Assembly: GCA_016722565.1 (NCBI GenBank)
Contig: JADKIU010000002.1
Location: 1,030,119 to 1,094,118, forward strand
DNA: 64,000 bases
Source: Bacteroidota bacterium
Lineage (GTDB): Bacteria > Bacteroidota > Bacteroidia > 2-12-FULL-35-15
Reading direction: 5' to 3'
This document shows, in pieces, positions 4,607 through 32,403 of this stretch. The stretch's first letter is position 1; each line of letters begins with the position of its first letter. Below the pieces are notes generated by a model, which was not told the DNA's origin, ran no database searches, and worked only from the letters and a program-made list of their open reading frames with translations. Position numbers and translations under genes: made by a program.

Positions 4607-4650
4607 GGAATTAAGGAGTAAATTTATAGATTCTTAAAAATAATAATACC

Positions 4651-5028: not shown

Positions 5029-5051
5029 TCGAAAACAGATTTGACAAATAA

Positions 5052-5095: not shown

Positions 5096-5521
5096 TATTT
5101 TCGTTTGCTGCAATTGCGTTTTATAGCCTGCAATTTTAACCCAATAAATAATCCAGCAGACCAAACCACCTAAAGCGGCCAATCCTCCAAGAAAAGGGAT
5201 AATACTGCAACAATAAAGAATACAATAGGTAAGTCCGATACTATAACCGGGACGATCTTCCGTTTGTTGAATCCCTCTTGAAATAAATTCGGCTTTTAAA
5301 GAATCTGCAATTCGATTTACAACAATAAACGACCATACCAAACCAAACAGCGGTATTAATATCAACCAAACTTGACCGGGAGGTAATTTTTGATTTTGCG
5401 GACTCACTTCATTCAACGTTTTTTGCAACGTCAACAAGTAAAAAATTTGAGGGATTAATCCAATTGCAATTCCTACAATAACCAAAAGAATTATAAGGCT
5501 CACTGTTGCTGCTTCATCCAT
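5093..5521 (-). CDS. Hypothetical multi-pass membrane protein
   Basis: 142 aa with about four hydrophobic helices. No recognisable catalytic motif. Confidence 0.45.
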   Translation of the reverse strand: MDEAATVSLIILLVIVGIAIGLIPQIFYLLTLQKTLNEVSPQNQKLPPGQVWLILIPLFGLVWSFIVVNRIADSLKAEFISRGIQQTEDRPGYSIGLTYCILYCCSIIPFLGGLAALGGLVCWIIYWVKIAGYKTQLQQTKI

Positions 5522-11832: not shown

Positions 11833-13027
11833 TTTTTTTCAGCTTCGCCATATAAAACCCATCAAAACCTTCACTCGGTAGGATCTTTCGATCTTCAATC
11901 AACTCGAAATTTTTATTTTTCTCCAAAAAGGTTTCTACTTGTCGCTGATTCTCGCTTGGCAAAATACTACAGGTTGCATAAACCATAACACCACCCGGTT
12001 TCAAAAGTTGAGAATAATTTTGAAGAATCTGTTGCTGTGTTTTTGTAATTCCTTCGATAAACTCCAAACTCAACTTCCATTTTGCATCTGGGTTTCTGCG
12101 AATCACGCCCAGCCCGGTGCAAGGCACATCTAACAACAACCGATCGGCCGTATTTTTTAATTTTAAAAGCGCTGCATCATTAATTAATTGTGTTTTAATA
12201 ATACGCACCCCTCCTCTATCTGCACGTTTTTTCAGTTCCAGTAATTTGCGTTCTTCCACATCCATTGAAATGATGTTTCCGGTATTGTTTATCATTGCCG
12301 CCATGTGTAAGGATTTCCCTCCCGCTCCTGCACAAGCATCAATCACTGTCATTCCTTCTTTCAAATCCAAAAAAGGAGCGATTAATTGAGAAGAGGCATC
12401 TTGAATTTCAAACAAACCTTGTTTGTATTCAGTTAGGTTTTGTAAATTTTGTCGTTTCACCAATACCAATGCATCCGGATAATCGCCAACAGGAAATGTT
12501 TCAATAGATTGTTCGGCTAATAAATGTTTTAATTGAACCGAATTTGTTTTTAAGGTGTTTACACGAAGTACAACTTGTGCTTCCTTATTTAATTCATGAA
12601 TTTCTTTTTCCCAAACAGTTTCCCCTAACTCTCGTGTGGCTACTTCATCCAACCAATCCGGTATAGATTCCCGATATTTTCGCGTTTTTTTTACCTGTTC
12701 CGCATTTTTCAGAATATGAGTCTTCTCTATTCCTTTAAACTCTTCCCAATCTGGTAGTTCAACTTCCTTCAATAATTGCCAGGCAGCAAACAATTCATAA
12801 TAATGTGGGGTATCTGTTCCATCTCCTTTATCAAGCGTGTGCACCAAAAACCGCCACCAACGTACCATTTCGTATACATTTTCGGCAATAAATCGTCTGT
12901 CGCGTGAGCCCCAGCGTGAATTTTGTTTGAGTACTTGTTCTACAGCCTTATCCGCATAAACACCCTGTACAAAAATTTGTTGAAGGGTTTCAATGACAGC
13001 ACTTACAAGCGATTTGTGGAGTTTCAT
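11825..13027 (-). CDS. rsmB: 16S rRNA (cytosine-C5)-methyltransferase, NOL1/NOP2/Sun family
   Basis: SAM-binding motif DACAGAGGKS, catalytic LLLDVPCTGLGVIRRNPD, and an N-terminal NusB-like region. Confidence 0.85.
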   Translation of the reverse strand: MKLHKSLVSAVIETLQQIFVQGVYADKAVEQVLKQNSRWGSRDRRFIAENVYEMVRWWRFLVHTLDKGDGTDTPHYYELFAAWQLLKEVELPDWEEFKGIEKTHILKNAEQVKKTRKYRESIPDWLDEVATRELGETVWEKEIHELNKEAQVVLRVNTLKTNSVQLKHLLAEQSIETFPVGDYPDALVLVKRQNLQNLTEYKQGLFEIQDASSQLIAPFLDLKEGMTVIDACAGAGGKSLHMAAMINNTGNIISMDVEERKLLELKKRADRGGVRIIKTQLINDAALLKLKNTADRLLLDVPCTGLGVIRRNPDAKWKLSLEFIEGITKTQQQILQNYSQLLKPGGVMVYATCSILPSENQRQVETFLEKNKNFELIEDRKILPSEGFDGFYMAKLKKND

Positions 13028-13115
13028 TTTATTAACAAAGTAATTGTGTAAAAATACACAATCGGGAGTAAATTATGCCTATTTATACTCGTCAAAAAAT
13101 AGTATTTTTGGGACA

Positions 13116-13736
13116 ATGAACTTCTCCTCAAAACTAATCGAAGAAGCTGTAAACGAATTTAGTAAGTTGCCCGGGGTGGGAAAACGTACTGCGTTGCGCT
13201 TTGTGTTGCATTTAATGAAACAAGATGCAGCTGAAGTGAACAAATTTGGCGGTGCCTTTATTAAGCTCCGTAACGAACTCCGTTATTGCGAAAAATGCCA
13301 CAATGTTTCAGACAAACCTTTGTGCGAAGTTTGTGTGAACCCACACAGAGATAACAGCGTTATTTGTGTTGTAGAAGATATCCGCGATGTGATGGCCATT
13401 GAGAACACCCAACAATATCGTGGCGTTTATCACGTTTTAGGTGGAATTATTTCTCCAATGGATGGAATTGGTCCAAGTGACTTGAATATCGAAACGCTTG
13501 TTAAAAAGGCAACCTCCGGAGAAATCAAAGAAGTGATAATGGCTTTAAGCACAACTATGGAAGGCGATACAACCAATTTTTATATCTATAAACGGTTAAA
13601 AGAATTCAATGTAACAGTGTCCACCATTGCCCGTGGAATTTCAATTGGCGATGAATTGGAATATGCAGATGAAGTAACGCTTGGTCGTTCTATTGTCAAT
13701 CGTACACTCTACGAAAACTCCTTATCATTCAAATGA
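13116..13736 (+). CDS. recR: Recombination protein RecR
   Basis: HhH ([12 protein letters not shown]), C4 zinc finger [16 protein letters not shown], and a Toprim region [15 protein letters not shown]. Start taken at [12 protein letters not shown] within the longer ORF. Confidence 0.9.
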
Positions 13737-14668
13737 AGTTAACAGTCGTAATTGTCAATTACAACGTTCAACATTTTTTAGAGCAATGCCTACATTCAGT
13801 TCGCAAAGCTTCAAAAAATGTATCGACTGAAATTTTCGTAGTCGACAACAACTCTGTTGACGGCTCCGTGAACATGGTGAAAGAAAAGTTTCCGGAAGTT
13901 CAACTAATAGAAAACAAAAAAAACACCGGATTTTCCTTTGCAAACAATCAAGCCATGCGCATTGCAAAAGGTGAATACGTTTTATTATTAAATCCGGATA
14001 CCGTTGTTGAAGAAGATACATTTGAAAAAGTAGTCGGATTTATGGATACACATCTGGATGCGGGTGGATTAGGTGTAAAAATGCTGGATGGGAAAGGAAA
14101 TTTCCTACCGGAATCAAAACGCGGACTGCCTACTCCATCGGTTGCCTTTTATAAAATCTTCGGATTTTCTCGTTTATTCCCAAAGTCAAAAACATTCGGA
14201 AAATATCACCTCGGCTTTTTAGATAAAGATAAAACGCATGCGGTAGAAATTCTTTCCGGAGCATTTATGCTCATGCGTAAAACCACACTCGATAAAGTTG
14301 GTTTATTGGATGAGACCTTTTTTATGTATGGAGAAGATATTGATTTATCCTATCGTATTATTTTAGGCGGATACAAAAACTACTACTTCCCTGAAACCCG
14401 CATTATTCACTACAAAGGAGAAAGCACAAAAAAGAGCAGCATCAACTACGTATTTGTATTTTACAAAGCGATGGTCATTTTTGCCAACAAGCATTTTTCA
14501 CAAAACAATGCAAAACTCTTTTCATTCTTAATCAATATCGCCATCTATTTAAGAGCCGGAGCAGCCATCTTTATCCGTTTTCTTAAATCCATTGCATTAC
14601 CGGCATTCGACTTTACATTGATAATGACCGGCTTATTATTAATCAAAGATTATTACGAAAAAATATAA
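13733..14668 (+). CDS. Glycosyltransferase family 2. It probably continues into 14671..15678 across an A6/A7 homopolymer at 14656-14661.
   Basis: VVIVNYN...[10 protein letters not shown]...LNPDT GT-A motifs. Inserting one A at 14656-14661 gives ...[37 protein letters not shown]..., in frame with the next ORF. Confidence 0.7.
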
Positions 14669-14670
14669 AG

Positions 14671-15678
14671 TTCATCGAAGGAGGTTCCTATTCGGCTGCC
14701 CTCACCTCTATTGCTTTTCCGGCATATATCATCATTTGGATGTTCACCGTTTATTTAAGTGGTGGTTACGACAAACCCATTCGTTTGTTTAGAGTGATTC
14801 GAGGAATTTTGGTGGGAACAGGAATTATTTTAATTGGTTATTCACTTTTACCGGAAGCCTATCGTTTCTCCCGCGCATTAATTATTTTAGGAATGGGTTG
14901 GGTGGTATTGTCGTATTTGATTTCTCGCTTGGCTTTTCACTTTGCCGGATTGAAATCGTTCAGCTTAAATCCTGATAAAAGCAAACGTATTGCAATCATT
15001 GGCCAGCAAGAGGAATACGAGCGTGTAAGTCAATTGCTTAAACAAACAAACATCAACACCAGCTTCCTTGTTTTTATTAGTGCGAACGATAAAGGGAATA
15101 CACATCCTGATTTTGTTGGCAACATTAACCAAATTGAAGAGGTCATTGAAATTTACAAAATCAATGAAGTGATTTTTTGTTCACGCGATATTTCTTCTCA
15201 AGGTATTATCGATTATATGCATACCCTCGTATCTGAAAATGTAGATTTTAAGATTGCACCTCCCGAAAGTTTATCCATCATTGGCAGCAATTCCATTGAC
15301 ACTGCAGGCGATTTGTATATCATTGATGTGAATTCCATCGGGAAACCAAAAAACAAACGCAACAAACGACTGTTTGATATCTTGTCTTCCATCCTCATCA
15401 TTGCCTTTTCACCGCTACTCGTTTTGATTCAAGATAACAAAGCCGGTTTTGTTAAAAACATGTTTGCTGTGTTGTTTGGATTCAAATCCTGGGTAGGTTA
15501 CGGCAACGACAAACACGATCATCTTCCTAAATTACGTCCATCAGCGCTCTCACCTGCTGATGCGATAAAAAACATCGCCATCAATGCCGACACCCGAAAT
15601 CGTTTGCATTTAGCGTATTCCAAAGATTATAAAATCGAGAATGATTTGAATATTGTTTGGAAAGGGATTAAAAATTAG
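14671..15678 (+). CDS. Membrane domain resembling the N-terminal half of WbaP-type sugar transferases (TM helices + CoA-binding-like region + KRLFDIL..S..I...SP), but without a complete catalytic C-terminus. Likely the C-terminal part of the preceding GT2 gene.
   Basis: TM helices; the NINQIEEVIEIYKINEVIFCS and KRLFDILSSILIIAFSPLLVL motifs; the C-terminus ends after about 100 aa without the usual sugar-transferase core. Confidence 0.45.
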   Translation, partial: FIEGGSYSAALTSIAFPAYIIIWMFTVYLSGGYDKPIRLFRVIRGILVGTGIILIGYSLLPEAYRFSRALIILGMGWVVLSYLISRLAFHFAGLKSFSLNPDKSKRIAIIGQQEEYERVSQLLKQTNINTSFLVFISANDKGNTHPDFVGNINQIEEVIEIYKINEVIFCSRDISSQGIIDYMHTLVSENVDFKIAPPESLSIIGSNSIDTAGDLYIIDVNSIGKPKNKRNKRLFDILSSILIIAFSPLLVLIQDNKAGFVKNMFAVLFGFKSWVGYGNDKHDHLPKLRPSALSPADAIKNIAINADTRNRLHLAYSKDYKIENDLNIVWKGIKN

Positions 15679-15722
15679 GGAACTAAGGCAACCAATCTGC
15701 GTTGAAAACGTCATCATTTAGG

Positions 15723-16328
15723 ATGCAGATAATTTCTACTAAAATTTCAAAGCAATTTATTCTAATTTTATGCATGCTCATTGGCTTGCATACTCAAACA
15801 AATGCTCAAACTTCTTTCAACACACTCAACATACTTCCAGGGGTAAAAATTGGCTATAATTTTGGATCTGGATTAGACTTTGGAGCTCACCTAGGATTTA
15901 CATTTTTTAATTACACTGTTTCTGGAACTGAATCAGGAGCTGGTATTGACATCGCTTATGATTATTTTTTTGGTCATACGTATCTCAGAGGAAAAAAAAG
16001 AACAACATTCAAAACAATTGGAATTAGTCTTTTGAACAACACAAACAACCAAGTTGTTTCAAAATTAGGCCTTTCGAAAACATCTGTTAAATGGGGATTT
16101 GACAATCGCAACAAATCCGAATCAAAAAGCTGGGGCTATAATGCAGATATTAGTTATTCACCACTAAAAAACGGTTTATTTATCGGATATCATGTATTTC
16201 AGGTAAATAATGCTTGTATGGGTTTAGGGGTGAATCATTCGAATATTTTTTACGCTGCTTATCGATATCCCGTAAGCTTTATTTTAAAAGACCCAATGGC
16301 AGTTAATTTTCCAAATCAAAATAAATAA
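15723..16328 (+). CDS. Hypothetical secreted/outer-membrane protein
   Basis: Signal peptide ...LHTQTNAQ. Gly/aromatic-rich, with a beta-barrel-like composition. Confidence 0.4.
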   Translation: MQIISTKISKQFILILCMLIGLHTQTNAQTSFNTLNILPGVKIGYNFGSGLDFGAHLGFTFFNYTVSGTESGAGIDIAYDYFFGHTYLRGKKRTTFKTIGISLLNNTNNQVVSKLGLSKTSVKWGFDNRNKSESKSWGYNADISYSPLKNGLFIGYHVFQVNNACMGLGVNHSNIFYAAYRYPVSFILKDPMAVNFPNQNK

Positions 16329-16333
16329 AACAA

Positions 16334-17746
16334 CTACCGAACAAACTTCCCACTCACCACTTCGCTTCCCACTACTCCTTTTAGAATGTAAACACCTGCT
16401 GGAAATCCGTTGAAATCGATCACCGAAATACCTTGTCCGATTTTTTTAGTAAGCAGCAATTTCCCTGTCACATCATAAATGTAAATATCAACTGAATGGA
16501 GCGAAGTTGCGCACGTAACTGTTCCATCGTGCATCCAATAGTGAAATTCATTTTTCAAATCGGATACTTCATTTATACCAATAGGAATTGAAAATTCATG
16601 TGCACCAATATCGATTGTACCACTTATTAATCTTAAAATTTCATTCGCTGGGTGTGAATATTCTTTGTCAGGTGTTAATGGGAAACCGGAATTCGCAAGT
16701 CCAGGATTTGTTCCAGAATTAACAGCTATCGAACTTGGGATAAGATGATAATCATACGAACTTGGACTCACAAAACCCATTGTTACAATGCTGGTTGCGC
16801 GAATATTATTCGAACTATCTATAACGGTTGCAGCTCCTGAAAGAGACGTTCCCGGTCCTGCAAAAATATTATTATACGATTTATACAAATCTAAACCCGA
16901 AGCAGGCAAAGAAATGAACGTTCCGGAGGAGCGATCATTCACAACTGTATTGTTCACAAAATAAAATTCTTGTGGTCCCGGATTTGTCAATCCTTCCAAT
17001 CCATAACCTACGATTCCGGAGTTGGTCGAATTAGGTCCTTGCTCAATTACATTCCCAATCACATAACTGGTTCCACCATTCGGAAGATCAATTTCTCTAC
17101 TGGCATTTCCGGTTGCTTCATTGCTGAGTCGGTTATACATCACATAGTTCACATGCGCTCTGCTTTTCAATTCATGCCCAATGTTACAATGATGTGTATA
17201 GTTGTAACGAAAAATCAATGTATCAATATTGTTGATGTACAGATTATGCGTGTAGCCATCACCAAAACCATTGTTACTAAATTCGGTATACTCTACAATA
17301 ATCTTACTTGGATTTAATGTTCCTGCAAGAATGCCATTTTCATTATCATGAAAATAACAATGACTAACGGTTAGGTTCAGACCTTCTTGTCGGATACCGG
17401 CACCATTTTCGGAAGGACAGGCACACAAAGAAAATTCTATCCATTCTACTTTGGTGTTGTTTCCACCAATCACCCAAATTGCCTTTCCACCCCAACTTAA
17501 TCCGTTTGCTTTTAGATGCGCCATTCCACCCACACCGCGCAGCAACAAATTATTGGCTGTCCAATGCGCTACATCGGAATTATATATTCCTGCATCAATA
17601 GAAACCGTATCTCCATTTGCAACTAATGTAGAAACCTGACTTGGTAAGGTATAAAAACGACTAGGCCCCACTAACCAATTGGTTGAATAAGAAGATTGGA
17701 GAATGAAAAGAAATAAAAGAATACTACCGATTTTTATCGTTTTCAT
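16334..17746 (-). CDS. Secreted right-handed beta-helix (pectate-lyase-fold) protein with T9SS/Por C-terminal sorting domain
   Basis: Signal peptide; repeated N.G....N parallel beta-helix motifs; C-terminal about 80 aa ...GVYILKGVVGSEVVSGKFVR typical of a T9SS CTD. Confidence 0.7.
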   Translation of the reverse strand: MKTIKIGSILLFLFILQSSYSTNWLVGPSRFYTLPSQVSTLVANGDTVSIDAGIYNSDVAHWTANNLLLRGVGGMAHLKANGLSWGGKAIWVIGGNNTKVEWIEFSLCACPSENGAGIRQEGLNLTVSHCYFHDNENGILAGTLNPSKIIVEYTEFSNNGFGDGYTHNLYINNIDTLIFRYNYTHHCNIGHELKSRAHVNYVMYNRLSNEATGNASREIDLPNGGTSYVIGNVIEQGPNSTNSGIVGYGLEGLTNPGPQEFYFVNNTVVNDRSSGTFISLPASGLDLYKSYNNIFAGPGTSLSGAATVIDSSNNIRATSIVTMGFVSPSSYDYHLIPSSIAVNSGTNPGLANSGFPLTPDKEYSHPANEILRLISGTIDIGAHEFSIPIGINEVSDLKNEFHYWMHDGTVTCATSLHSVDIYIYDVTGKLLLTKKIGQGISVIDFNGFPAGVYILKGVVGSEVVSGKFVR

Positions 17747-17801: not shown

Positions 17802-18335
17802 TTATTTCACAAATAGTTTTGGATGACTTCCTGATGATTTAACCTGAAGTAGAATATCAAACAACTTCGCAGTAGCTACAGCATCGCCTTCCGCTCTGTG
17901 TCTTGCGTTATTCGGGATATTCAATGCATCACATATTTTCCCTAAGCTATATGATTTATGACCGGGAATTAGTTTTCTGCTTAATTGGACAGTACATAAC
18001 TTCTTTCGTTCGAAATGAAAACCTAAGGAAGCGAATTCTGCTTTGATGAAATTATAATCGAAACTCACATTGTGAGCAACAAAGGTTTTATTGTCGGTGA
18101 GTTCGTGAATTTTTTTTGCGACTTGATGAAATTTTGGAGCTCCAACTACCATTTCGTTGGTAATACCGGTAATATCTGTATATAAAGGGGAGATATAACA
18201 TTCCGGATCAATGAGAGTAGAAAATTTATCGACCACACTTAATCCATCATGAATTAAAATACAGATTTCGGTGATGCGTCCTGTAGGATAATTGAATTTA
18301 CCTCCGCAGGTTTCTATATCGATGATGGCAAACAT
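17802..18335 (-). CDS. DnaQ-like 3'-5' exonuclease (DEDDh, epsilon-subunit family), stand-alone domain; paralog of the N-terminus of 19588..20967
   Basis: MFAIIDIETCGG (Exo I), FVAHNVSFDYNF (Exo II), HRAEGDAVATAKLF (Exo III). About 75% identical to residues 1-170 of the 459-aa neighbour. Confidence 0.85.
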   Translation of the reverse strand: MFAIIDIETCGGKFNYPTGRITEICILIHDGLSVVDKFSTLIDPECYISPLYTDITGITNEMVVGAPKFHQVAKKIHELTDNKTFVAHNVSFDYNFIKAEFASLGFHFERKKLCTVQLSRKLIPGHKSYSLGKICDALNIPNNARHRAEGDAVATAKLFDILLQVKSSGSHPKLFVK

Positions 18336-18376
18336 TGTTGCAAAGATATGATTTTGACACAGAGACTCGTGTTTTT

Positions 18377-18460
18377 AGCCACAGATTCACAGATTAAAAT
18401 TTTCAAATTAGAAATCTCACCAATTATTTTCTAAAACAGAAAATCTGTGAATCTGTGGCT
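18377..18460. repeat. Perfect 19-20 bp inverted repeat (AGCCACAGATTCACAGATT ... AATCTGTGAATCTGTGGCT) with a 46-nt spacer, lying between the lexA-like stop and the exo177 start. Each arm contains a tandem CACAGATT x2.
   Basis: The arms at 18377-18395 and 18442-18460 are exact reverse complements, as read directly from the sequence. Confidence 0.9.
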
Positions 18461-18465
18461 ACCCA

Positions 18466-19224
18466 CTATTTTCCCATTTCAACGCGGAATGACTGCAAGA
18501 AACGAATCATGCTTTCCAAGTTTAAGTCTTGTGGTTTAAACTCACCAATATTTAAGCTGCATACAAAGCTCCAAACTTCGATGATGTTTTCTGTTTTAAC
18601 CGGATATGGACTATACACAGGATTATCTGAGTGAAACTGGAATACATCGTTCGATTTTTTATCTTCACGATACAGGCGTTTGTACACCACTCCATCTTCT
18701 TTGGTAAGGATGATATAGGTTTGTCCGTCTTTTATTTCTTTCATCGACTCCACATATTTACCCACTACGAATGTTCCATCTTTTAGTAATGGCATAGAAT
18801 CCCCTTTTATGGAGAATGCACGGTGTTTGCCAACAATTTTAAATGGGAGGTTCATGATTGGCAGATCCTCGATAAATTCAGGATCGGCATACCCATTTAA
18901 ATAACCGGCAACCGCTTTTGCAGGAACCACTTCTACCAGGTCTTGATTTTGACGATCAACAATCACAGGAAACAGGATTCTGTTTTTCCCGATTTCGAGC
19001 AATGACTCCGGATCCGTTTTTGCCAAATCACCTCTCACCAATGCATCAATGGCAATGTGAAAATGATCTGCAATTTTGATTAATAAATCATAAGGAGGCT
19101 CAGCTCTTCCTTCTTCATAAGATCCTAATCGAGAGCGGGAAATATCCAATTCATCCGCTAACTGAGTTTGAGATAATTTTTTTAGTGCTCTCAGAACACT
19201 AATGTTTTTGGCTATTTTTGACAT
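18466..19224 (-). CDS. LexA-like / phage-CI-like transcriptional repressor (N-terminal HTH_XRE, C-terminal S24 peptidase with Ser-Lys dyad)
   Basis: HTH: LSQTQLADELDISRSRLGSYEEGR. S24: ...AFSIKGDSMPLL... then ...GVVYKRL. The start is placed at the internal MSKIAKNISVL because the upstream part of the ORF track entry overlaps the promoter. Confidence 0.8.
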   Translation of the reverse strand: MSKIAKNISVLRALKKLSQTQLADELDISRSRLGSYEEGRAEPPYDLLIKIADHFHIAIDALVRGDLAKTDPESLLEIGKNRILFPVIVDRQNQDLVEVVPAKAVAGYLNGYADPEFIEDLPIMNLPFKIVGKHRAFSIKGDSMPLLKDGTFVVGKYVESMKEIKDGQTYIILTKEDGVVYKRLYREDKKSNDVFQFHSDNPVYSPYPVKTENIIEVWSFVCSLNIGEFKPQDLNLESMIRFLQSFRVEMGK

Positions 19225-19238
19225 TGCTAATATATTTA

Positions 19239-19266
19239 GCACAAATATACTAAATATATTTGCACA
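19239..19266 (-). promoter_or_regulatory. Putative promoter/operator of the lexA-like gene: imperfect palindrome CAAATATA-N5-TATATTTG, providing a TATATTTG (-7 box) on the coding strand about 20 bp upstream of the ATG. Near-identical motif upstream of dinB.
   Basis: The plus strand reads gcacaaatatactaaatatatttgcaca; compare 21035-21058. Confidence 0.5.
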
Positions 19267-19300
19267 TTTGCAAATGTAAATCAAAAAATGTTTTGTTTGT

Positions 19301-19320
19301 GTCCCGATAACTATCGGGAT
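19301..19320. repeat. Palindromic element GTCCCGATAACTATCGGGAT (member of a dispersed 20-bp palindrome family)
   Basis: Other copies lie at 19425-19442, 55679-55696 and 58584-58603. Confidence 0.85.
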
Positions 19321-19424
19321 AAGATTTTAAGATTTCGAATCGGGGTGCTGTTTTCAAGAAAAAAATAAACAATGCCATGGTTATTTAAATAATGAAACCA
19401 CCCCGATTTTTTTTCTCGACTTCG

Positions 19425-19442
19425 CTCGATAGCTATCGGGAC
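19425..19442. repeat. Palindromic element CTCGATAGCTATCGGGAC (same family); its flank GGGACGAAATG is the reverse complement of the flank of the 58584 copy
   Basis: Direct sequence comparison. Confidence 0.85.
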
Positions 19443-19587
19443 GAAATGGCAAAAGTCAATCTCGAAATGACAATAATAAAATAATCATCGCGAGGCGCGA
19501 GGCAATTTCGGAAAAGTAATTGAAAGAGATTGTCTCGCTGCCTTCACAATGAGAGAAGCCACCAAAACTCAAAATACCATATCCTCC

Positions 19588-20967
19588 TCAATCTAATCCA
19601 AGTGGATATAACTTAATTTTTGGGTTTTGTTTTAAAAAACCTCTAACTAAATCATTCGCATCCGGGAAGTAGGTGCATCGTTTCACATAGTTTTTAAAGT
19701 CATTGGGCGAATTTATTTCTACTGTTATATCAAAATAACCAACTCCTCTCACAACATTCTCTTCAATAAGAATAACCGATTTCTCTCCAAGCACTTTCCC
19801 TTTATCGATAATCACAAAATCCGAATATGGAAGCAGATACTGCTGCATCAGTTCATTTGCGCGCTTATTATAAATGACTACCTCTTCTTCTCCGGCACAA
19901 ATGCCATTGCATTTTTTTATCTGATGATTAAAACAAATTGAACCGGCTTCCGTTAATCCACAGTACAGCAAACACAAATCATTTTCATCCAATAAGGTTT
20001 CTAACTTTTCACGTGCAGCAAAATAGGAATTAAAAGACATCAAGGGCGATTGTGCATCGGCATATTCTACCAATTTAAAATTGATGATCCCTTTGTCATC
20101 TTTAAACCAATCAATACTATGTGTAAATGAATCGGATTTTCGCTGGCGATTATATTTGGGTTTATGCTTTTTTATTTCTTCGGCCTCCATAAGCAATGCG
20201 ATCAATTCACTTCCGGTAGCAACAAAATCAACATTATACAATTCGTTCAACATTTTCCTGCCTTTCTGTTCTTTTGTATTAAAGTGGCTCATGGCTCTGT
20301 TGTATGCATTTACACTTTTGCCGATGTATATGATTTGTTGATCTTGATCCAAAAAATAATATACACCACACTCTTCCGGAAGTTTATTTAGAATATATTT
20401 TTTAATCTTATCAATTCGTCTTACCATCAATTCGTCAACCCCTTTGGTTTTGTATTGAGGATGATCGCTTTTGATTTGCATTAATCGGTCAAACAATTTT
20501 GCTGTTGCAACAGCATCTCCTTCCGCTCTGTGTCGGTCTTCAATTTCGATCCCCAACGATTCACAAAGATTTCCGAGACTATACGACTTCTTACCGGGAA
20601 TTAATTTCCTGCTCAAACGAACAGTACACAGCGTGTCGCGTTTAAATTTCGCCCCAAATGAATTAAACTCTTCTTTTATAAATCCATAATCAAACCCCAC
20701 ATTGTGTGCTACAAAAATCTTGTTCTCTGTCATCTCCCATATTTTTTTGGCAACTTCAGGAAAGGTTGGCGCATCTTGTACCATTTCATTTGTAATTCCT
20801 GAAATACGAGTAAATGTTGGATGAATATAACATTGTGGATTTATCAATGTCGAGAATTTATCTACTACAGTCAACCCATCGTGGATTAAAATACAGATTT
20901 CAATTACATGTCCTCTTCTGTATTCAAATTTCCCTCCGCAGGTTTCTATGTCGATGATGGCAAACAT
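19588..20967 (-). CDS. Fusion protein: N-terminal DnaQ-like 3'-5' exonuclease + C-terminal GIY-YIG nuclease with UvrC-N-like Cys motif (Cho-like/Rv2191-like architecture)
   Basis: Exo motifs MFAIIDIETCGG / FVAHNVGFDYGF / HRAEGDAVATAKLF. GIY-YIG: CGVYYFLDQDQQIIYIGKSVNAYNRAMSHF. The UvrC-like ICFNHQIKKCNGICAG sits after the GIY-YIG. Confidence 0.8.
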   Translation of the reverse strand: MFAIIDIETCGGKFEYRRGHVIEICILIHDGLTVVDKFSTLINPQCYIHPTFTRISGITNEMVQDAPTFPEVAKKIWEMTENKIFVAHNVGFDYGFIKEEFNSFGAKFKRDTLCTVRLSRKLIPGKKSYSLGNLCESLGIEIEDRHRAEGDAVATAKLFDRLMQIKSDHPQYKTKGVDELMVRRIDKIKKYILNKLPEECGVYYFLDQDQQIIYIGKSVNAYNRAMSHFNTKEQKGRKMLNELYNVDFVATGSELIALLMEAEEIKKHKPKYNRQRKSDSFTHSIDWFKDDKGIINFKLVEYADAQSPLMSFNSYFAAREKLETLLDENDLCLLYCGLTEAGSICFNHQIKKCNGICAGEEEVVIYNKRANELMQQYLLPYSDFVIIDKGKVLGEKSVILIEENVVRGVGYFDITVEINSPNDFKNYVKRCTYFPDANDLVRGFLKQNPKIKLYPLGLD

Positions 20968-21034
20968 TGTTAATATTTTCTTTGGCGCTACAAGCCCTTT
21001 AATTAGAAGGATACAAAGGTTACTAAAATACTTG

Positions 21035-21058
21035 GCACAAAATTACTAAATATATTGG
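21035..21058 (+). promoter_or_regulatory. Putative promoter/operator upstream of dinB-dnaE2 (ggcacaaaattactaaatatattgg), 22/24 identical to the lexA-like upstream motif, with a partial direct repeat ttactaaaata at 21020-21030
   Basis: Aligns as GCACAAA(W)(W)TACTAAATATATT(K)G with 19239-19262. It sits 45-68 bp upstream of the dinB ATG in a divergent intergenic region shared with the exo-GIY-YIG gene. Confidence 0.45.
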
Positions 21059-21102
21059 TAATTTCAAATCGAAATTAATTCGCTACTCCAATTCTCAAAA
21101 AA

Positions 21103-22260
21103 ATGAATAAGCGCACGATTGTCCATATGGATTTGGATTCTTTTTTTGTATCCGTTGAACGCTTAAACAATAGCAGCCTTAACGGAAAACCCGTAATTAT
21201 AGGAGGTACATCCGACAGAGGGGTTGTGGCATCTTGCAGTTATGAAGCACGACAATTTGGTGTTCATTCCGCAATGCCGGCAAGAATGGCCAAACAACTC
21301 TGCCCACAGGCCATCTTTGTTCAGGGCGACTATGATGAATATTCCAAACACTCCAACATTGTTACAGAAATTATAAATGAACAAAGTCCGATTGTTGAAA
21401 AAGCAAGTATAGACGAACACTATCTTGATATTACCGGGATGGAACGCTATGTTAAACCAAGCATGCAATGGACGCATGAGTTAAGAGAACGGATCATCAA
21501 ACAATCCGGATTACCCATTTCATTTGGTTTATCTGCCAACAAAACTGTTTCTAAAATTGCGACCGGTGAATCCAAACCGAATGGAGAATTAAGCGTTGAC
21601 CATGGATTAGAAAAACTTTTTCTGAGCCCGCTTTCTATTAGAAAAATTCCGGGAATAGGTGATAAAACGTACATGCTGTTGCGCAACATGGGAATTGAAA
21701 GAGTGCAAACCATTCAACAAATGCCCATCGAAATGATGACAAGTGTTCTGGGAGAGAATGGTCAAACTATTTGGAAAAAATCAAACGGAATTGACAATTC
21801 TCCTGTTGAACCTTATTCTGAAAGAAAAAGCATTAGCAAGGAAACAACTTTTGATAAAGATACTACAGATATTAAAAAACTAAAGCAGCATATTGTTACA
21901 ATGGTTTTTGATTTGGCATTTCAACTCCGCAAGGAAAAAAAAGTAACCGGTTGCATTGTACTAAAATTACGTTATACCGATTTCCAAACACATACATTTC
22001 AATGTAAAATCGCACATACCTCTTCCGATCATATTCTACTAACGAAAGCAATGGAAGTATTTGAAAAAAATTACTCCCGCAGAGTACTCATCCGTTTAAT
22101 AGGAATCAAACTAACGAATCTAGCAGCTGGCTACAATCAAATTCATTTATTTGATGATACGGAAGAAATGGTAAAACTATATCAAGCAATGGATAAAATC
22201 CGTTTGCGGTATGGAGAAGATGCAATAAAAAGAAGTATCAGCTTAGGTAAAAAACGATAA
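21103..22260 (+). CDS. dinB: Y-family DNA polymerase IV (DinB type, catalytic residues retained)
   Basis: HMDLDSFFVSVE (catalytic Asp pair), SIDEHYLDIT (catalytic D-E), little-finger region. Similar to DinB along its full length, unlike ImuB, which lacks these residues. Confidence 0.85.
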   Translation: MNKRTIVHMDLDSFFVSVERLNNSSLNGKPVIIGGTSDRGVVASCSYEARQFGVHSAMPARMAKQLCPQAIFVQGDYDEYSKHSNIVTEIINEQSPIVEKASIDEHYLDITGMERYVKPSMQWTHELRERIIKQSGLPISFGLSANKTVSKIATGESKPNGELSVDHGLEKLFLSPLSIRKIPGIGDKTYMLLRNMGIERVQTIQQMPIEMMTSVLGENGQTIWKKSNGIDNSPVEPYSERKSISKETTFDKDTTDIKKLKQHIVTMVFDLAFQLRKEKKVTGCIVLKLRYTDFQTHTFQCKIAHTSSDHILLTKAMEVFEKNYSRRVLIRLIGIKLTNLAAGYNQIHLFDDTEEMVKLYQAMDKIRLRYGEDAIKRSISLGKKR

Positions 22261-25191
22261 ATGATACTAAATGCGCATACATATTATAGCTTACGATATG
22301 GAACACTATCCATTGAGGAAGTAGTGCAAGCTGCGCTTGACAACAACTACGAAGCGATTGCAATTACCGATATTAATAATTCTTCAGGGGTTTTAGAATT
22401 TGTAAAGGTTTGTTTTGAAAAATGCATCAAGCCAATTGTTGGCATGGAGTTTCGAAATGGAGACGAACTTCAGTTTATTGCCATCGCTAAAAACAATGAT
22501 GGATTTAAGGAAATTAATGAATTAATGACAGCATGCAACATTTCATGCACAACAATTCCAAAACGAGCTGAATTGCACAACTGTTATATCATTTATACTT
22601 ATTCAAAAGCCACAACAGAGGAGTTAAAAGAAAACGAATTTATTGGAATTCGTTCCAATCAAATCAATAAAATACTTTTTGATTCTGAAAAACAAAAAAG
22701 TAAATATGTCATCTTGCAATCACTTACCTACGACAATCAAAAAGGGTATGATGTGCACCAAAAATTATGTGCAGTAGGCCACAACTTACTTTTATCACAA
22801 CTAAAGCCGGAAAATACTGCAGGCAATGACGAACACCCCATACCAAGAAAGCTGTTATTGAAAAAATTTGAAGAGCTACCGCAATTGATTAAAAACACAA
22901 AAATAATTGTGGAGAATTGTTGTTTCAACTTCGATTTTAAATCCAATAAAAATAAAAAAACATTTACCGGAAATAAAAACGATGATACGTTACTTCTTCA
23001 AAAATTAGCATACGATGGCCTCACATTCAGATATGGAGCAAACAACAAGATAGCCAAACAACGAGTTGATAATGAATTGGCAATTATCAACAATCTTGAT
23101 TTTTCCGCATATTTTTTAATCACGTGGGATATTGTCCGATATTCCATGTCGAGAGGATACTATCATGTAGGACGAGGAAGCGGTGCAAACAGCGTGGTTG
23201 CATATTGCTTAAGAATTACTGACGTTTGCCCGATTGAACTGGATCTCTATTTCGAACGTTTTTTAAATCCAAAAAGAAAGTCGCCTCCGGATTTTGATAT
23301 TGATTATAGCTGGAAAGAACGAGATGATGTTATTGATTATATTTTTAAACGATACGGCAGAAAACATACCGCCCTGCTAGGCACAATGTCAACCTTTAAA
23401 GACCGGTCGATTATTCGCGAATTGGGAAAAATCTATGGATTACCAAAAGAAGACATTGACCGATTAATCAAAGATCCGAATTCGGCACTCAATGAAAATG
23501 AAATTTGCAAAACCATTCTCAGTTATTATAGTGAAATAGAAAACTATCCGAATACAAGAAGCATTCATGCAGGTGGAATTTTAATTTCAGAAGAGCCACT
23601 CACCGCCTATTGCGCCTTAGACATGCCTCCCAAAGGTTTTCCAACCACGCAATTCGACATGTATTTGGCCGAAGATATTGGTTTAGACAAACTCGATGTT
23701 TTAAGCCAGAGAGGCATCGGACATATAAAAGAAGCGGCAGAAATTGTAAAACAAAACAAAGGCATATCGATTGATGTTCACGACATCAATAAATTTAAAA
23801 CCGATAAAAAAGTTCAAGCACAATTATTGTCGGGCAACACAATTGGTTGTTTTTATGTGGAAAGCCCTGCGATGCGCGGATTACTCAAAAAACTAAATTG
23901 TGACAATTACCTTACATTGGTAGCTGCAAGCTCAATCATCCGCCCTGGAGTAGCAAGGAGTGGCATGATGAAAGCATATATTCAACGATCACACAACCCT
24001 GAAAGCTTTGAATATCTACATCCGGTTATGAAAGAGCAGCTGAAGGATACATTTGGTGTAATGGTATACCAAGAAGATGTTTTAAAAGTTGGACATTACT
24101 TTGGAGGATTGGATTTGGCCGATGCGGATGTACTAAGAAGAATGATGAGTGGAAAATCAAGAAACAAAAAGCATTTAGAAGAAATAGAAGCTAAATTTTT
24201 CAACCATTGTAAAGAACAAAAATACCCCGAACACATTTCGAATGAAGTATGGCGGCAAATAGAATCTTTTGCAGGTTACAGCTTTAGCAAAGCGCATTCA
24301 GCAAGCTATGCTGTTGAAAGCTACCAAAGTTTATATCTAAAATCCTATTTCCCAATGGAATTTATGGTCGCTGTCATCAACAACTTCGGAGGTTTTTACA
24401 ATACACGAATCTATGTAAACGAAGCCCAAATGTCAGGTGCTGAAGTACATTTACCTTGTGTTAATAAAAGTACATATACAACCAATATCCATGGGAAAGA
24501 CATTCACCTTGGATTTATACATTTAAAAAGCTTAGAAGAAAAAATTGGACAAACAATTGAATCTGAACGAAACAAAAATGGGAACTATACATCCTTAGAG
24601 GATTTCCTAAAACGTATTCAAATTGGGATTGAACAACTTATTATTCTCATTCGTATTAATGCATTCCGATTTACAAAAAAAAACAAACGACAACTATTGT
24701 GGGAAGCACATTTGCTAATGGGACAAAATCAAACAAAACACAGTTCTATGTTATTCGAGCCTCCTAAAAGTGACTTTACGCTACCACCATTGGAATACAA
24801 CAAAATCGAAGATGCGTATGATGAAATAGAATTACTCGGATTTACAACAACATTAAATCCTTTCGATTTACTTAAAACGGCAAGTCGTGAAAGCCTCAGA
24901 GCAAAAGAACTGATACATTTTACAGGAAAACAAATTCGAATCATGGGCAACTATGTAACGTACAAACCAGTAAGAACAATCAATGGGGACCAGATGGCTT
25001 TCGGAACATTTTTAGATATGGATGGTTGTTTTTTTGATACCGTTAACTTTCCACCTAGCTTAAAAAAATTCCCATTCACAGGATCCGGTGTATATCTGAT
25101 TTCGGGAAAAGTAGTTGAGGAATTCGGATTTCCGAGTATTGAAGTAGAAAAAATGGCTCGATTACCAATACAACCTGACCCAAGAAATTAA
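22261..25191 (+). CDS. dnaE2: Error-prone DNA polymerase DnaE2 (ImuC; PolIII-alpha family, PHP domain N-terminus, about 976 aa)
   Basis: PHP domain (HTYYSLRYGT...ITDINN), polymerase core (GRGSGANSVVAYCLRITDV...DFDIDY), about 1000 aa rather than 1160. Its ATG directly follows the dinB TAA (coupled). Confidence 0.85.
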   Translation: MILNAHTYYSLRYGTLSIEEVVQAALDNNYEAIAITDINNSSGVLEFVKVCFEKCIKPIVGMEFRNGDELQFIAIAKNNDGFKEINELMTACNISCTTIPKRAELHNCYIIYTYSKATTEELKENEFIGIRSNQINKILFDSEKQKSKYVILQSLTYDNQKGYDVHQKLCAVGHNLLLSQLKPENTAGNDEHPIPRKLLLKKFEELPQLIKNTKIIVENCCFNFDFKSNKNKKTFTGNKNDDTLLLQKLAYDGLTFRYGANNKIAKQRVDNELAIINNLDFSAYFLITWDIVRYSMSRGYYHVGRGSGANSVVAYCLRITDVCPIELDLYFERFLNPKRKSPPDFDIDYSWKERDDVIDYIFKRYGRKHTALLGTMSTFKDRSIIRELGKIYGLPKEDIDRLIKDPNSALNENEICKTILSYYSEIENYPNTRSIHAGGILISEEPLTAYCALDMPPKGFPTTQFDMYLAEDIGLDKLDVLSQRGIGHIKEAAEIVKQNKGISIDVHDINKFKTDKKVQAQLLSGNTIGCFYVESPAMRGLLKKLNCDNYLTLVAASSIIRPGVARSGMMKAYIQRSHNPESFEYLHPVMKEQLKDTFGVMVYQEDVLKVGHYFGGLDLADADVLRRMMSGKSRNKKHLEEIEAKFFNHCKEQKYPEHISNEVWRQIESFAGYSFSKAHSASYAVESYQSLYLKSYFPMEFMVAVINNFGGFYNTRIYVNEAQMSGAEVHLPCVNKSTYTTNIHGKDIHLGFIHLKSLEEKIGQTIESERNKNGNYTSLEDFLKRIQIGIEQLIILIRINAFRFTKKNKRQLLWEAHLLMGQNQTKHSSMLFEPPKSDFTLPPLEYNKIEDAYDEIELLGFTTTLNPFDLLKTASRESLRAKELIHFTGKQIRIMGNYVTYKPVRTINGDQMAFGTFLDMDGCFFDTVNFPPSLKKFPFTGSGVYLISGKVVEEFGFPSIEVEKMARLPIQPDPRN

Positions 25192-31674: not shown

Positions 31675-32403
31675 TTACTTTTTATAAAAAATGCCGTTAC
31701 ATTGTAATACTTTTCCTGTCACATTATCCGTGAAAGCTGGTACAATACTGGTTAATACAAAGCCTTTTTGCTCCATATACTCCAACACTTGAGGTAGCAA
31801 CCATGTTTGATTTTCATATAACGGCACTAGCGAAATCTCCATTTCAATCCCTTTTGCCAGAGCAATCATTTCTGAAGCTCCTTTTAGCACTTCTTGCTCA
31901 AACCCTTGCACATCAATTTTCAAAAAAATGTTTTTTGAAGAACCGATATACGTTTTTGCAATTTCATCCAATGGATAAACAGTCACTTTCTCCTTTCCAA
32001 TAATCTTGGATTCAGGGGCGCCTTCAATATGTGTGTCCAACATGGTTAGAAGCGTGCTGCTAACCGAATTGGCAGAAATATTAATTTCAATTTCTTCCTT
32101 TTTTGAACCAATTGCGCAACGCGGAGCCACTGTCCAATTTGTATGGGATTTACTTGCATTTTCAATAATTGAATGAACAGATGACAAAGGTTCAAACGAA
32201 ACAATTTTCTGCTGATACCCAACATCCATTATTCCTGTAGCATATTGCCCTTTATTTGCTCCAATATCAAAAACCAAATCAATGCTATAGTGTTCGAATA
32301 GTTTAATACGTCTCAAATCTTCACTTGTAGCAGCATTGTACTTGCGTATTAAAATTCCGAAATTTTGAAATATTTTTTTTGTGATTCGTTCAAAGCTATT
32401 CAT
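31675..32403 (-). CDS. FkbM-family SAM-dependent methyltransferase (start uncertain; the ORF extends to 32541)
   Basis: The DLVFDIGANKGQYA motif and overall FkbM architecture. Confidence 0.65.
   Translation of the reverse strand: MNSFERITKKIFQNFGILIRKYNAATSEDLRRIKLFEHYSIDLVFDIGANKGQYATGIMDVGYQQKIVSFEPLSSVHSIIENASKSHTNWTVAPRCAIGSKKEEIEINISANSVSSTLLTMLDTHIEGAPESKIIGKEKVTVYPLDEIAKTYIGSSKNIFLKIDVQGFEQEVLKGASEMIALAKGIEMEISLVPLYENQTWLLPQVLEYMEQKGFVLTSIVPAFTDNVTGKVLQCNGIFYKK

Follow-up and report, generated by a model that had tools for sequence, protein, structure and literature searches.

Do the five genes lying between positions 17802 and 25191 of a 64-kb window from an uncultured Bacteroidota bacterium (the window being the whole stretch of DNA analyzed) belong together in the response to DNA damage, and is their arrangement new? 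The original prediction saw here an SOS-type mutagenesis and repair cluster, possibly regulated as a unit, and took it for an unusual variant that couples polymerases with proofreading-type exonucleases. We found all five open reading frames at the coordinates given below, with domains backed by Pfam and NCBIfam. The locus is a genuine DNA-damage (SOS) gene cluster, a reading upheld by its genes, its operator pairs and its conserved gene order, and the grouping is not due to chance: the same genes co-occur in dozens of Bacteroidota genomes. Gene identities, operon and, as a probable reading, co-regulation withstood scrutiny, whereas the unusual variant and the proofreading role did not.

The dinB-dnaE2 operon

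The dinB gene (21103-22260, plus strand) encodes a 385-aa Y-family polymerase with the Pfam domains IMS (2.9e-46) and IMS_C. The protein scores 313 bits against the DNA polymerase IV model PRK02406 (cutoff 256), and its best PDB match (7yll_A, 3.9e-72) spans its full length. In an alignment with E. coli DinB, its DLD and SIDE motifs fall on the catalytic D8/D10 and D103/E104 region, confirming the retention of catalytic residues that had been proposed. By its sequence, the enzyme is a catalytically intact DinB type and not ImuB. Over 40 relatives conserve its C-terminal tail, in which a clamp-type QIHLF motif precedes LYQAMDKIRLRYGEDAIKR, a motif resembling the RecA N-terminus; the top PDB match of the tail profile is the RecA N-terminal helix, a weak hit (E = 0.009) to a multi-copy RecA fusion chain only. 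DinB-type polymerases of such pairs are known in the literature as Bacteroidetes PolY2 (PMC6511836).

The dinB TAA (22258-22260) is followed at once by the ATG (22261-22263) of the dnaE-like gene dnaE2 (22261-25191, plus strand), which bears out the abutting junction and tight operon of the original prediction; the junction measures at most 30 nt in 34 of 55 relatives. The product is a C-family polymerase of 976 aa with PHP, DNA_pol3_alpha, finger and HHH_6 domains (Pfam), and it falls below the cutoffs of the DnaE1 model (560 vs 1002) and of the classical error-prone DnaE2 model (488 vs 939 bits). Aligned to Taq Pol III alpha, it keeps PDFDIDYS and LDKLDVL with the catalytic aspartates intact, while the metal-ligand motif of its PHP domain is degenerate (H to N, D to Y, H to I). 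A tau-binding C-terminal domain is absent from the 976-aa polymerase. More than 8000 homologs are about 975-981 aa long, several of them labelled 'error-prone DNA polymerase' by JGI. On these features, the predicted protein is an accessory C-family polymerase of the kind that the literature calls DnaE2B.

Nucleases and repressor

The exo+GIY-YIG gene (19588-20967, minus strand) encodes a 459-aa Exo-Cho fusion nuclease in which a DEDDh exonuclease at the N-terminus is joined to a GIY-YIG domain of the UvrC/Cho type and a Cys-rich region. Pfam recognizes RNase_T (4.2e-32) and GIY-YIG (3.9e-06) and detects no UvrB-binding (UVR) domain; the DEDD exonuclease model PRK07883 matches at 1.2e-77, and the NCBIfam Cho model, matching residues 191-376 (5.7e-31), supports the Cho-like call made originally. 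Relative to L081, the closest relative (86% identity, with dS ~1 in its flanking genes), the gene and its promoter form an indel of ~1.55 kb (blastn).

Cho+Exo and Cho-like+Exo fusions were published in a 2006 survey of the GIY-YIG superfamily, which listed them in Actinobacteria and a few Betaproteobacteria (PMC1564403). They share the layout found here, with an epsilon-like DEDDh exonuclease ahead of the GIY-YIG (UvrC/Cho-type) and Cys-rich parts, and were proposed to make a 3' incision and then resect 3'->5' through the lesion; Cho-type nucleases act independently in nucleotide excision repair (PMC1564403). For the exonucleases first described as proofreading-type, we infer that a role as Cho-type excision nucleases equipped with a 3'-5' exonuclease domain is a better reading than one as proofreading subunits. 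The present fusion differs in its Bacteroidota lineage, in having no detected UVR domain, and in that the lineage also retains a Cho-less copy, exo177.

This standalone DEDDh (DnaQ/RNase_T-type) 3'-5' exonuclease (17802-18335, minus strand) was identified from its ORF and Pfam match (RNase_T, 5.8e-31), and its translation contains the motifs DIET, HNVSFD and HRAEGD. With the N-terminal exonuclease domain of the fusion it shares 71% identity, in line with the proposal of two DnaQ-type paralogs, one fused to GIY-YIG. Comparison with the L081 ortholog (94% protein identity, dN/dS 0.035, dS ~1) indicates strong purifying selection. At the exo177 position, downstream of lexA, four relatives (L002, L019, L082 and L084) carry the full-length exo+GIY-YIG gene.

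The lexA-like gene was called at 18466-19284 (minus strand), with a TTG start at 19284. Its orthologs are 252 aa long, so the true start is almost certainly the ATG at 19224, giving a non-canonical (Bacteroidetes-type) LexA repressor of 252 aa (18466-19224, minus strand). The predicted domain pair stood (HTH_3, 2.2e-12; Peptidase_S24, 4.5e-10; Pfam) and only the start was revised. The HTH is of CI/XRE type with a weak Phage_CI_repr match, and the S24 domain presents a candidate scissile bond A105-G106, serine S143 in GDSM and lysine K182 in KRL. Sanchez-Osuna et al. (NAR 2021; PMC8565304) describe a repressor family with a CTAA-N5-TTAG operator, validated by EMSA in other species; the family is probably of phage origin, controls host SOS genes, and has a regulon that includes a dinB/polIII-alpha operon and a GIY-YIG exonuclease.

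Paired operators and spacer elements

The lexA promoter and a putative autoregulatory operator form one module (19227-19262, minus strand). Its proximal box CTAAATATATTAG (19227-19239, minus strand), 2 nt upstream of the lexA ATG, is a perfect CTAA-N5-TTAG and the only such site in the window. A Bacteroidetes -7 element TATATTTG (19242-19249, minus strand) separates it from the distal box CAAATATATTTAG (19250-19262, minus strand), with 23 bp between the box centres. The operator region is identical to that of L081 at 62 of 62 positions, and relatives likewise carry two dyads 23 bp apart adjoining lexA, with half-sites that differ and co-vary. A second two-box SOS promoter module (21023-21058), homologous to the first by sequence comparison, occupies the divergent exo+GIY-YIG/dinB intergenic region. 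Its boxes CTAAAATACTTGG (21023-21035) and CTAAATATATTGG (21046-21058) have one mismatch each, lie 67 and 44 nt upstream of the dinB ATG, are again 23 bp apart and enclose a -7 element TAATTTTG (21038-21045, minus strand). In L081, the boxes are ~250 bp away from dinB.

Three of the four boxes deviate by one base from the published consensus (CAAA/CCAA for CTAA, minus strand), and sites with at most one mismatch are not enriched across the window (29 observed, 30.8 expected), so the argument for operators is one of position, pairing and homology. Pairs of boxes at a spacing of exactly 23 bp occur 3 times against 0.017 expected, and two or more arose in 0 of 300 simulations. A search for an exact plus-strand -7 element for dinB found none, so the position of its promoter is putative. 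With one LexA-type operator pair before lexA and another in the promoter region that exo+GIY-YIG shares with dinB, the cluster is probably co-regulated. Regulation as a unit, as first suggested, would take in lexA, exo+GIY-YIG and dinB-dnaE2. The exo177 gene has a -7-like element of its own, and a strong hairpin stands between it and lexA; no operator box of its own was found for exo177, so its SOS control is only putative.

That hairpin (18376-18461, minus strand) has a perfect 20-bp stem with arms at 18379 and 18442. Its fold energy is -41.5 kcal/mol (z = -6.0; 0 of 200 shuffles equally stable), and it matches no credible Rfam family. With no trailing U-run, it looks like a partial insulator or an element of the REP/MITE type. 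The corresponding position in L081 is taken by a Y1_Tnp gene. The spacer from the exo+GIY-YIG gene to the lexA promoter contains two conserved non-coding blocks (within 19330-19552), 98.8% (block A, 19330-19416) and 94% (block B, 19478-19552) identical to L081 and unique among all sequence compared, with fold z-scores of -2.7 to -4.6. Block A folds into a hairpin with a U8 run after it on the plus strand, and block B into one with a U-rich tail on the minus strand, where a terminator-like match lies at 19500-19488. The blocks probably act as a terminator or as an insulator separating the two units. Two CCCGATAnCTATCGGG palindromes (19301-19323 and 19420-19442) are inverted repeats found in the window only.

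Gene order, known systems and alternative explanations

When the neighborhoods of dnaE2 homologs were compared, dinB lay directly upstream of dnaE2 in 52 of 74 related loci, 31 of which also have a divergent lexA-like gene, and the module proved near-universal across Bacteroidota orders. The exo+GIY-YIG gene lies within 10 kb of the module in only 12 of 80 loci; besides its place downstream of lexA, it directly follows dnaE2 in L020, L042 and L070 (gaps of 5-43 nt). The syntenic 24-kb neighborhood holds no RecA/ImuA-like gene, consistent with the reported absence of imuA. The arrangement is therefore standard and widespread in Bacteroidota, and it was published before: Timinskas and Venclovas described the 'unusual ... 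two apparently active polymerases, Bacteroidetes PolY2 group and DnaE2' (NAR 2019; PMC6511836), and their NAR 2026 survey names the pair 'DnaE2B-PolY-RecA' and finds Bacteroidetes DnaE2B in genomes without imuA and imuB (PMC12926913). By description (the published exemplar being Cellulophaga algicola ADV50500.1), the likeness covers an active Y-family polymerase whose C-terminal motif is RecA-NT-like and whose gene immediately precedes that of a short DnaE2 with a degenerate PHP and no C-terminal tau-binding domain; imuA, imuB and ImuB-C are not nearby, and the pair often adjoins lexA. Both surveys gave 0 matches for GIY-YIG or UvrC as to an Exo-Cho partner, and the nuclease embedded in the cluster, here and in relatives in two alternative gene orders, is the difference.

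[quoted passage not shown] Shared are the CI-like HTH and S24 repressor architecture with Ala-Gly and Ser/Lys, a perfect CTAA-N5-TTAG in the repressor's own promoter, several boxes per promoter, the members (dinB-polIII-alpha operon, GIY-YIG DnaQ-like exonuclease, repressor) and half-sites that vary between paralogs and between orthologs, TTAC-N5-GTAA being one variant, also present in relatives here. The locus differs in its three one-base deviations, in the duplicated two-box promoter module and in the fixed 23-bp spacing around a -7 element, which was not found described in the passages drawn on here.

The imuA-imuB-dnaE2 (ImuC) cassette of Mycobacterium, Caulobacter and Pseudomonas is likewise a LexA-controlled operon of a Y-family-fold protein and a second, non-replicative DnaE, with a presumed role in damage-induced translesion synthesis. 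That the locus is a variant of this lexA-imuA-imuB-dnaE2 cassette, with an ImuB-like inactive scaffold, would fit the placing of a Y-family gene just before a second dnaE, the LexA-type repressor and the JGI labels of several homologs, but is extremely improbable: the Y-family protein exceeds the DNA polymerase IV cutoff (NCBIfam) with all catalytic acidic residues kept, is only 385 aa long without an ImuB-C extension, and has no ImuA nearby, RecA being the presumed substitute. The polymerase, far below the classical DnaE2 cutoff, belongs to another DnaE2 subgroup, one found in genomes without imuA and imuB (PMC12926913), and the repressor is not homologous to the canonical LexA DNA-binding domain. 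At the sequence level, the inactive scaffold was rejected for the 385-aa protein. That the cluster is what remains of a prophage or mobile element, with a CI-like repressor and the polymerases and nucleases as cargo, rather than a host SOS core, is very unlikely too. The CI/XRE-like HTH, the small mobile-type repeats, the Y1_Tnp gene of L081 and a distant relative (L083) with dinB-dnaE2 beside RVT genes and an integrase speak for it, yet GC content is level throughout the window, ~25 kb of synteny with L081 is kept with housekeeping and envelope genes as flanks, and phage structural, integrase and replication genes are absent nearby. The module is spread across Bacteroidota orders, and the repressor family, though probably phage-derived, governs host SOS genes (PMC8565304).

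The co-localization of exonucleases and polymerases poses a finer question. It stands at nearly even odds that it is merely regulatory or historical, with Exo-Cho serving DinB/DnaE2-independent excision repair and exo177 an unrelated housekeeping, non-SOS enzyme. The sparse linkage of exo+GIY-YIG to the module, the promoter and hairpin that set the boxless exo177 apart, and the independent repair role of Cho-type nucleases (PMC1564403) favor it; the linkage in two independent gene orders and the two-box promoter region common to exo+GIY-YIG and dinB argue against it.

Altogether, with a probability of roughly 0.85, the cluster is a chromosomal core of the SOS regulon of this bacterium. With its parts and wiring already in the literature, it is a well-preserved example and no discovery. 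Its local novelties are minor: the duplicated SOS promoter module, a Cho-less paralog under strong purifying selection, and an Exo-Cho nuclease linked again and again to the polymerase operon. From the observed gene identities, catalytic motifs, operator positions and homology and gene-order conservation, we infer the following course of repression, cleavage, complex formation and nuclease action. A non-canonical LexA dimer would bind CTAA-N5-TTAG-type dyads, paired 23 bp apart and bracketing the -7 element, with one pair overlapping the repressor's own promoter for autoregulation. Upon DNA damage, RecA filaments would stimulate LexA self-cleavage at A105-G106, derepressing lexA (and possibly exo177 by read-through), the Exo-Cho nuclease and the dinB-dnaE2 operon. 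The operon would supply a DinB-type enzyme with clamp-binding and RecA-N-terminus-like motifs and a DnaE2B-type enzyme with a dead PHP domain, both predicted to be catalytically competent. A predicted ImuA/ImuB-independent DnaE2B-PolY-RecA translesion complex would unite the two with RecA, and Exo-Cho would presumably nick on the 3' side of bulky lesions and then resect 3'->5'.

The polymerase pair and its conservation across Bacteroidota

The cluster is a further case of an already described SOS arrangement. On the minus strand it comprises an exonuclease gene (exo177, 17802-18335), a lexA-like gene (18466-19224) and an exonuclease-GIY-YIG fusion, here called Exo-Cho (19588-20967). These are followed on the plus strand by dinB (21103-22260; 385 aa) and a dnaE-like gene (22261-25191; 976 aa). 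The five open reading frames stand exactly where the original prediction placed them, and profile searches (Pfam, NCBIfam) upheld their domain assignments. The lexA-like gene is present, but its start is almost certainly ATG 19224 rather than TTG 19284, since its orthologs are uniformly 252 aa long. While the anatomy and the SOS logic of the prediction were right, its view of the cluster as an unusual variant overstated the novelty: every element is already documented in the literature, which makes the observation an independent rediscovery. What is said below on repression, on cleavage, on the assembly of a complex and on the action of the nucleases is predicted from knowledge of the respective families.

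The Y-family protein had been proposed to be an active DinB rather than an ImuB, and the alignment with E. coli DinB agrees. Its motifs hmDlDsFF and siDE fall on the catalytic carboxylates, and the alignment with 7yll_A, its best match of solved structure, spans the whole protein and takes in the C-terminal tail; both identify a DinB-type enzyme. It also scores 313 bits against the NCBIfam DNA polymerase IV model PRK02406 (cutoff 256). The tail carries a clamp-type motif, QIHLF, followed by LYQAMDKIRLRYGEDAIKR, with the pattern LYQAMDKIRxRFGxxAI kept in more than 40 relatives; the protein ends 30 residues past the clamp motif, with no extra domain. Pairwise BLASTP of the tail against E. coli RecA gave no alignment and was replaced by a profile search against 177,635 PDB sequences. 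There, the RecA N-terminal oligomerisation helix GQIEKQFGKGSIMR came first, as a weak match that reached E = 0.009 only on a multi-copy RecA chain. This weak match agrees with the RecA-NT motif reported for the PolY group (Timinskas and Venclovas; PMC6511836, PMC12926913).

The DnaE-like protein contains PHP, Pol III alpha, finger and HhH domains. Aligned to Taq Pol III alpha, it keeps the catalytic aspartate motifs (PDFDIDYS, LDKLDVL), and its PHP metal ligands are substituted (H to N, D to Y and H to I). Its C-terminus has no tau-binding domain, and its match to the DnaE1 model (1146 positions) reaches no further than position 1029. In its active site, substituted PHP domain and missing tau-binding domain, it is consistent with published Bacteroidetes DnaE2.

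Together, the two genes resemble the DnaE2B-PolY-RecA module in the catalytic acidic residues of an active PolY and in the operonic adjacency of polY and dnaE2; as predicted, the dnaE ATG directly follows the dinB TAA. The published Bacteroidetes pair likewise comes without ImuA or ImuB-C (Timinskas and Venclovas, 2019, 2026). The classical imuA-imuB-dnaE2 cassette differs in three respects. Its Y-family member is dead and carries ImuB-C, whereas the catalytic residues are present here and ImuB-C is absent. It includes a RecA-like imuA, whereas none was found, in line with the prediction, among the window ORFs flanking the cluster or the called genes of the syntenic 23-kb locus L081, the closest long relative (86% identity). 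Finally, its polymerase fits the error-prone DnaE2 model NF004225, whereas the window polymerase reaches 488 bits where 939 are required, under its score with the replicative DnaE1 model (560 bits), which is itself below the curated cutoff. The syntenic neighbourhood of the cluster holds no RecA/ImuA-like gene and no second dnaE.

In Bacteroidota, the 976-aa polymerase has more than 8000 homologs, about 975-981 aa long, which make up a very large family. By DnaE2 identity, named genome representatives reach 70% at most, and the one 99% match is from an ENA metagenome contig. A scan of one genome per species returned at least 598 loci. We fetched 80 of them, including Flavobacterium, Chryseobacterium, Pedobacter, Mucilaginibacter, Chitinophaga, Saprospiraceae and many Bacteroidales MAGs, and 74 had enough upstream sequence. 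The gene-neighbourhood comparison bears out the pairing: dinB lies directly upstream of dnaE2 in 52 of the 74 loci, in reverse order in 5, further off in 5 and is missing from 12. A divergent lexA-like gene stands beside dinB in 31 of the 52 dinB-dnaE2 loci. The two genes overlap or abut at 13 of 55 junctions and lie within 30 nt of each other at 34 of 55. In L047, L056, L058, L076, L078 and L080 (Chitinophagaceae-type loci and some others), dnaE2 precedes dinB by about 30-120 nt, so that the pairing is kept with its order inverted. Another relative, L083 (72% identity; regions 1411-5345 and 11858-16937), carries dinB-dnaE2 without an adjacent lexA; two RVT_1 (reverse transcriptase) genes lie upstream of the pair, and SRAP (SOS-response-associated peptidase), HTH_17 and phage-type integrase genes lie downstream. 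Given these RVT_1 and integrase neighbours, the polymerase pair may also travel on integrative elements.

The LexA-like repressor and its predicted operators

The repressor (252 aa) matches HTH_3 (2.2e-12) and, weakly, Phage_CI_repr at its N-terminus, and Peptidase_S24 (4.5e-10) at its C-terminus; Pfam gave no match to the LexA winged HTH (PF01726, LexA_DNA_bind). A single AG at residues 105-106 (AVAGY), GDSM at 141-144 and KRL at 182-184 provide a candidate scissile Ala-Gly bond and a candidate Ser-Lys dyad. Sanchez-Osuna et al. (2021; PMC8565304) showed that canonical LexA is absent from Bacteroidetes, where CI-like HTH+S24 repressors recognise CTAA-N5-TTAG or GGA-N5-TCC instead, with binding, damage induction and RecA-dependent cleavage demonstrated in other species. 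The same paper lists as regulon members a dinB/polIII-alpha operon, a GIY-YIG-containing DnaQ-like exonuclease and the repressor itself. The window repressor resembles the CTAA-N5-TTAG group in its CI/XRE HTH and S24 domains, AG and Ser-Lys residues, in a predicted operator within its own promoter (autoregulation), and in predicted operators upstream of dinB and the GIY-YIG exonuclease.

Exactly one perfect CTAA-N5-TTAG box occurs in the 64 kb, at 19227-19239, 2 nt upstream of the repressor ATG. Sites with at most one mismatch are not enriched across the window (29 observed versus 30.8 expected), so the case for the boxes has to be made from position, pairing and homology. The boxes come in pairs spaced by exactly 23 bp, one at 19227 and 19250 in the lexA promoter and one at 21023 and 21046 in the divergent Exo-Cho/dinB intergenic region, where each box has one mismatch. 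Read on the minus strand, the lexA module (CAAATATATTTAG-TATATTTGTG-CTAAATATATTAG) and the Exo-Cho module (CCAATATATTTAG-TAATTTTGTG-CCAAGTATTTTAG) are homologous, and both have a Bacteroidetes -7 element (TAnnTTTG) between the boxes. The window has three such 23-bp pairs where 0.017 are expected; in 300 simulations the count never rose to two. The lexA operator region is identical to L081 at 62 of 62 positions, while in the flanking genes synonymous divergence from L081 is close to saturation (dS 0.75-1.3). In 35 relatives in which lexA is divergent from dinB, two 4-N5-4 dyads lie 23 bp apart beside the lexA start, with differing half-sites (CTAC, ATTA, TTAC, CTAT and others). These agree with the operator divergence, including TTAC-N5-GTAA, reported in PMC8565304.

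The third 23-bp pair (32037/32060, spanning 32037-32072; CCAACATGGTTAG and CTAACCGAATTGG, one mismatch each) is located in coding sequence, within a Methyltransf_21-type gene, with GC-rich spacers and no -7 element between the boxes. We set it aside as an operator on its coding position and its lack of a promoter element; it is probably a non-functional chance occurrence, if a slightly odd one with 0.017 such pairs expected per window. The GGA-N5-TCC motif of the second Bacteroidetes LexA group was rejected as the operator here: it matches 15 times in the window versus 7.8 expected, but never in the cluster promoters, and its matches in the island all fall within coding sequence. Bacteroidota promoters follow a consensus other than that of sigma-70, and a sigma-70 promoter scan was uninformative (28 matches versus 32 expected).

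Among the related loci, L014, L037, L043, L053, L057, L060 and others have a perfect CTAA-N5-TTAG box upstream of dinB. Most of these have no adjacent lexA, as in Pedobacter, Mucilaginibacter and Nibribacter, and loci with an adjacent divergent lexA mostly have other dyads. The pattern points to private operators for LexA paralogs encoded at the locus, and to control of unlinked dinB-dnaE2 operons by the main CTAA-type LexA. In the window, exo177 has no operator; a perfect 20-bp hairpin parts it from lexA, and a -7-like element directly precedes its ATG. About 4 kb from the SOS cluster and in conserved synteny lies recR (13044-13736; RecR_HhH, Toprim and RecR_C in the L081 ortholog), near which no CTAA-type box was seen.

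Exo-Cho, exo177 and the local history of the locus

Exo-Cho (459 aa) combines an RNase_T domain (residues 4-159) with a GIY-YIG domain (200-273; Pfam). It matches the Cho model over 191-376 (5.7e-31) and the UvrC model over 193-371 (1.6e-23), both under the full-length cutoffs, and its orthologs carry Pfam UvrC_M. The subfamily is decided by the C-terminal domain, either a Cho-CTD or a UvrB-binding one; Pfam detected no UVR/UvrB-binding domain, and the last ~85 residues have no domain assignment. The protein resembles the Cho+Exo and Cho-like+Exo families in its DEDDh exonuclease fused to a UvrC/Cho-type GIY-YIG and a Cys-rich region. Exo+Cho fusions were catalogued in 2006 with a proposed incise-then-resect mechanism (PMC1564403). 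An Exo-Cho gene lies less than 10 kb away in 12 of the 80 loci, in two arrangements: downstream of lexA (L002, L019, L005, L062; also L082 and L084), or immediately after dnaE2 in the same orientation, 5-43 nt away (L020, L042, L070).

Profile searches assign exo177 to the RNase_T/DnaQ-type DEDDh exonucleases, and in translation the DEDDh motifs are intact in both exo177 and the fusion. With 94% protein identity to its L081 ortholog, exo177 has a dN/dS of 0.035, which together with the intact motifs rules out a decaying remnant or pseudogene. In more distant relatives a full-length Exo-Cho gene occupies the position of exo177, which is thus the positional counterpart of that gene minus the Cho half. 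L081 has exo176, Y1_Tnp and lexA on one strand, divergent from dinB and dnaE2, and no Exo-Cho gene; relative to it, the window holds an extra ~1.55 kb (~19553-21080) consisting of the Exo-Cho gene and the second two-box promoter. Pairwise, exo177 is 71% identical to the exonuclease half of the window fusion. The exonuclease domains of exo177, the window fusion and the L002 fusion share 68-70% identity with one another, which places the exonuclease duplication before the split of the window and L081. We infer that the layout could go back to a tandem duplication of an exoCho-lexA-promoter segment and to complementary losses after it. Synteny with L081 extends over about 25 kb of housekeeping and envelope genes and GC is flat across the window, so this is not a mobile island.

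Between lexA and exo177, a perfect hairpin with a 20-bp stem (18376-18461; CCACAGATTCACAGATT arms; -41.5 kcal/mol, z = -6) stands exactly where L081 has a 139-aa Y1_Tnp (IS200/RAYT-type) gene (7293-7712), and the Flavobacterium loci L048 and L070 contain short matches to its arms. Possibly the hairpin is a REP/MITE-type element with ties to the L081 Y1_Tnp. An Rfam scan of 17-26 kb gave only spurious sub-threshold matches to eukaryotic miRNA/snoRNA families, on this hairpin. Between the lexA promoter and the Exo-Cho 3' end, two non-coding blocks are 98.8% (A, 19330-19416) and 94% (B, 19478-19552) identical to L081, with flanking genes at dS ~1. Each is a hairpin followed by a U-rich tract, on the plus strand in A and the minus strand in B, and L081 has both in the leader of ~250 bp that separates dinB from the SOS boxes. 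Candidate roles are a leader/attenuator element or a bidirectional terminator; dispersed repeats are ruled out among the compared sequences, where the blocks occur only in the window and L081. The GTCCCGATAnCTATCGGGAC-type palindromes (19301-19323, 19420-19442, 55681 and 58586) behave in a REP-like manner, and the two in the lexA/Exo-Cho spacer (19301-19323 and 19420-19442) are missing from L081, which marks them as recent insertions.

A possible link between Exo-Cho and the polymerase pair

What goes beyond the cited papers is modest: the duplication of the two-box SOS promoter module, the split of the nuclease, with a Cho-less exonuclease under selection beside the full-length Exo-Cho, and the recurrent embedding of the Exo-Cho gene in the polymerase cluster. 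The polymerase surveys (PMC6511836, PMC12926913) make no mention of GIY-YIG or UvrC. One reading of this embedding is that Exo-Cho, here with exo177, serves as a dedicated accessory of an ImuA-independent DinB-DnaE2B translesion complex instead of being a mere co-regulated repair enzyme. We regard this as unlikely, at a probability of roughly 15%. Such an accessory could, for example, prepare or trim 3' ends at the lesion, or proofread in trans for a PHP-dead polymerase. An accessory role is compatible with the independent placement of the nuclease gene in a lexA-exoCho and in a dinB-dnaE2-exoCho operon, with the duplicated two-box SOS promoter that Exo-Cho and dinB are predicted to share in the window, and with the strong purifying selection on a lone exonuclease domain.

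DinB-DnaE2B forms a two-polymerase system that is damage-inducible, widespread in Bacteroidota and, to our knowledge, known from computational work only; clean natural examples aid the choice of model loci. Here, the SOS core is compact and annotated in full, and its predicted operators are clearly resolved. The duplicated operator/promoter module is natural material for dissecting operator architecture, and the separation of the exonuclease and Cho halves in this lineage amounts to a natural domain-dissection experiment. Altogether, the current understanding of the system is unchanged, and the value of the locus lies in confirmation and in a pointer to a putative link between Exo-Cho and DnaE2B-PolY.
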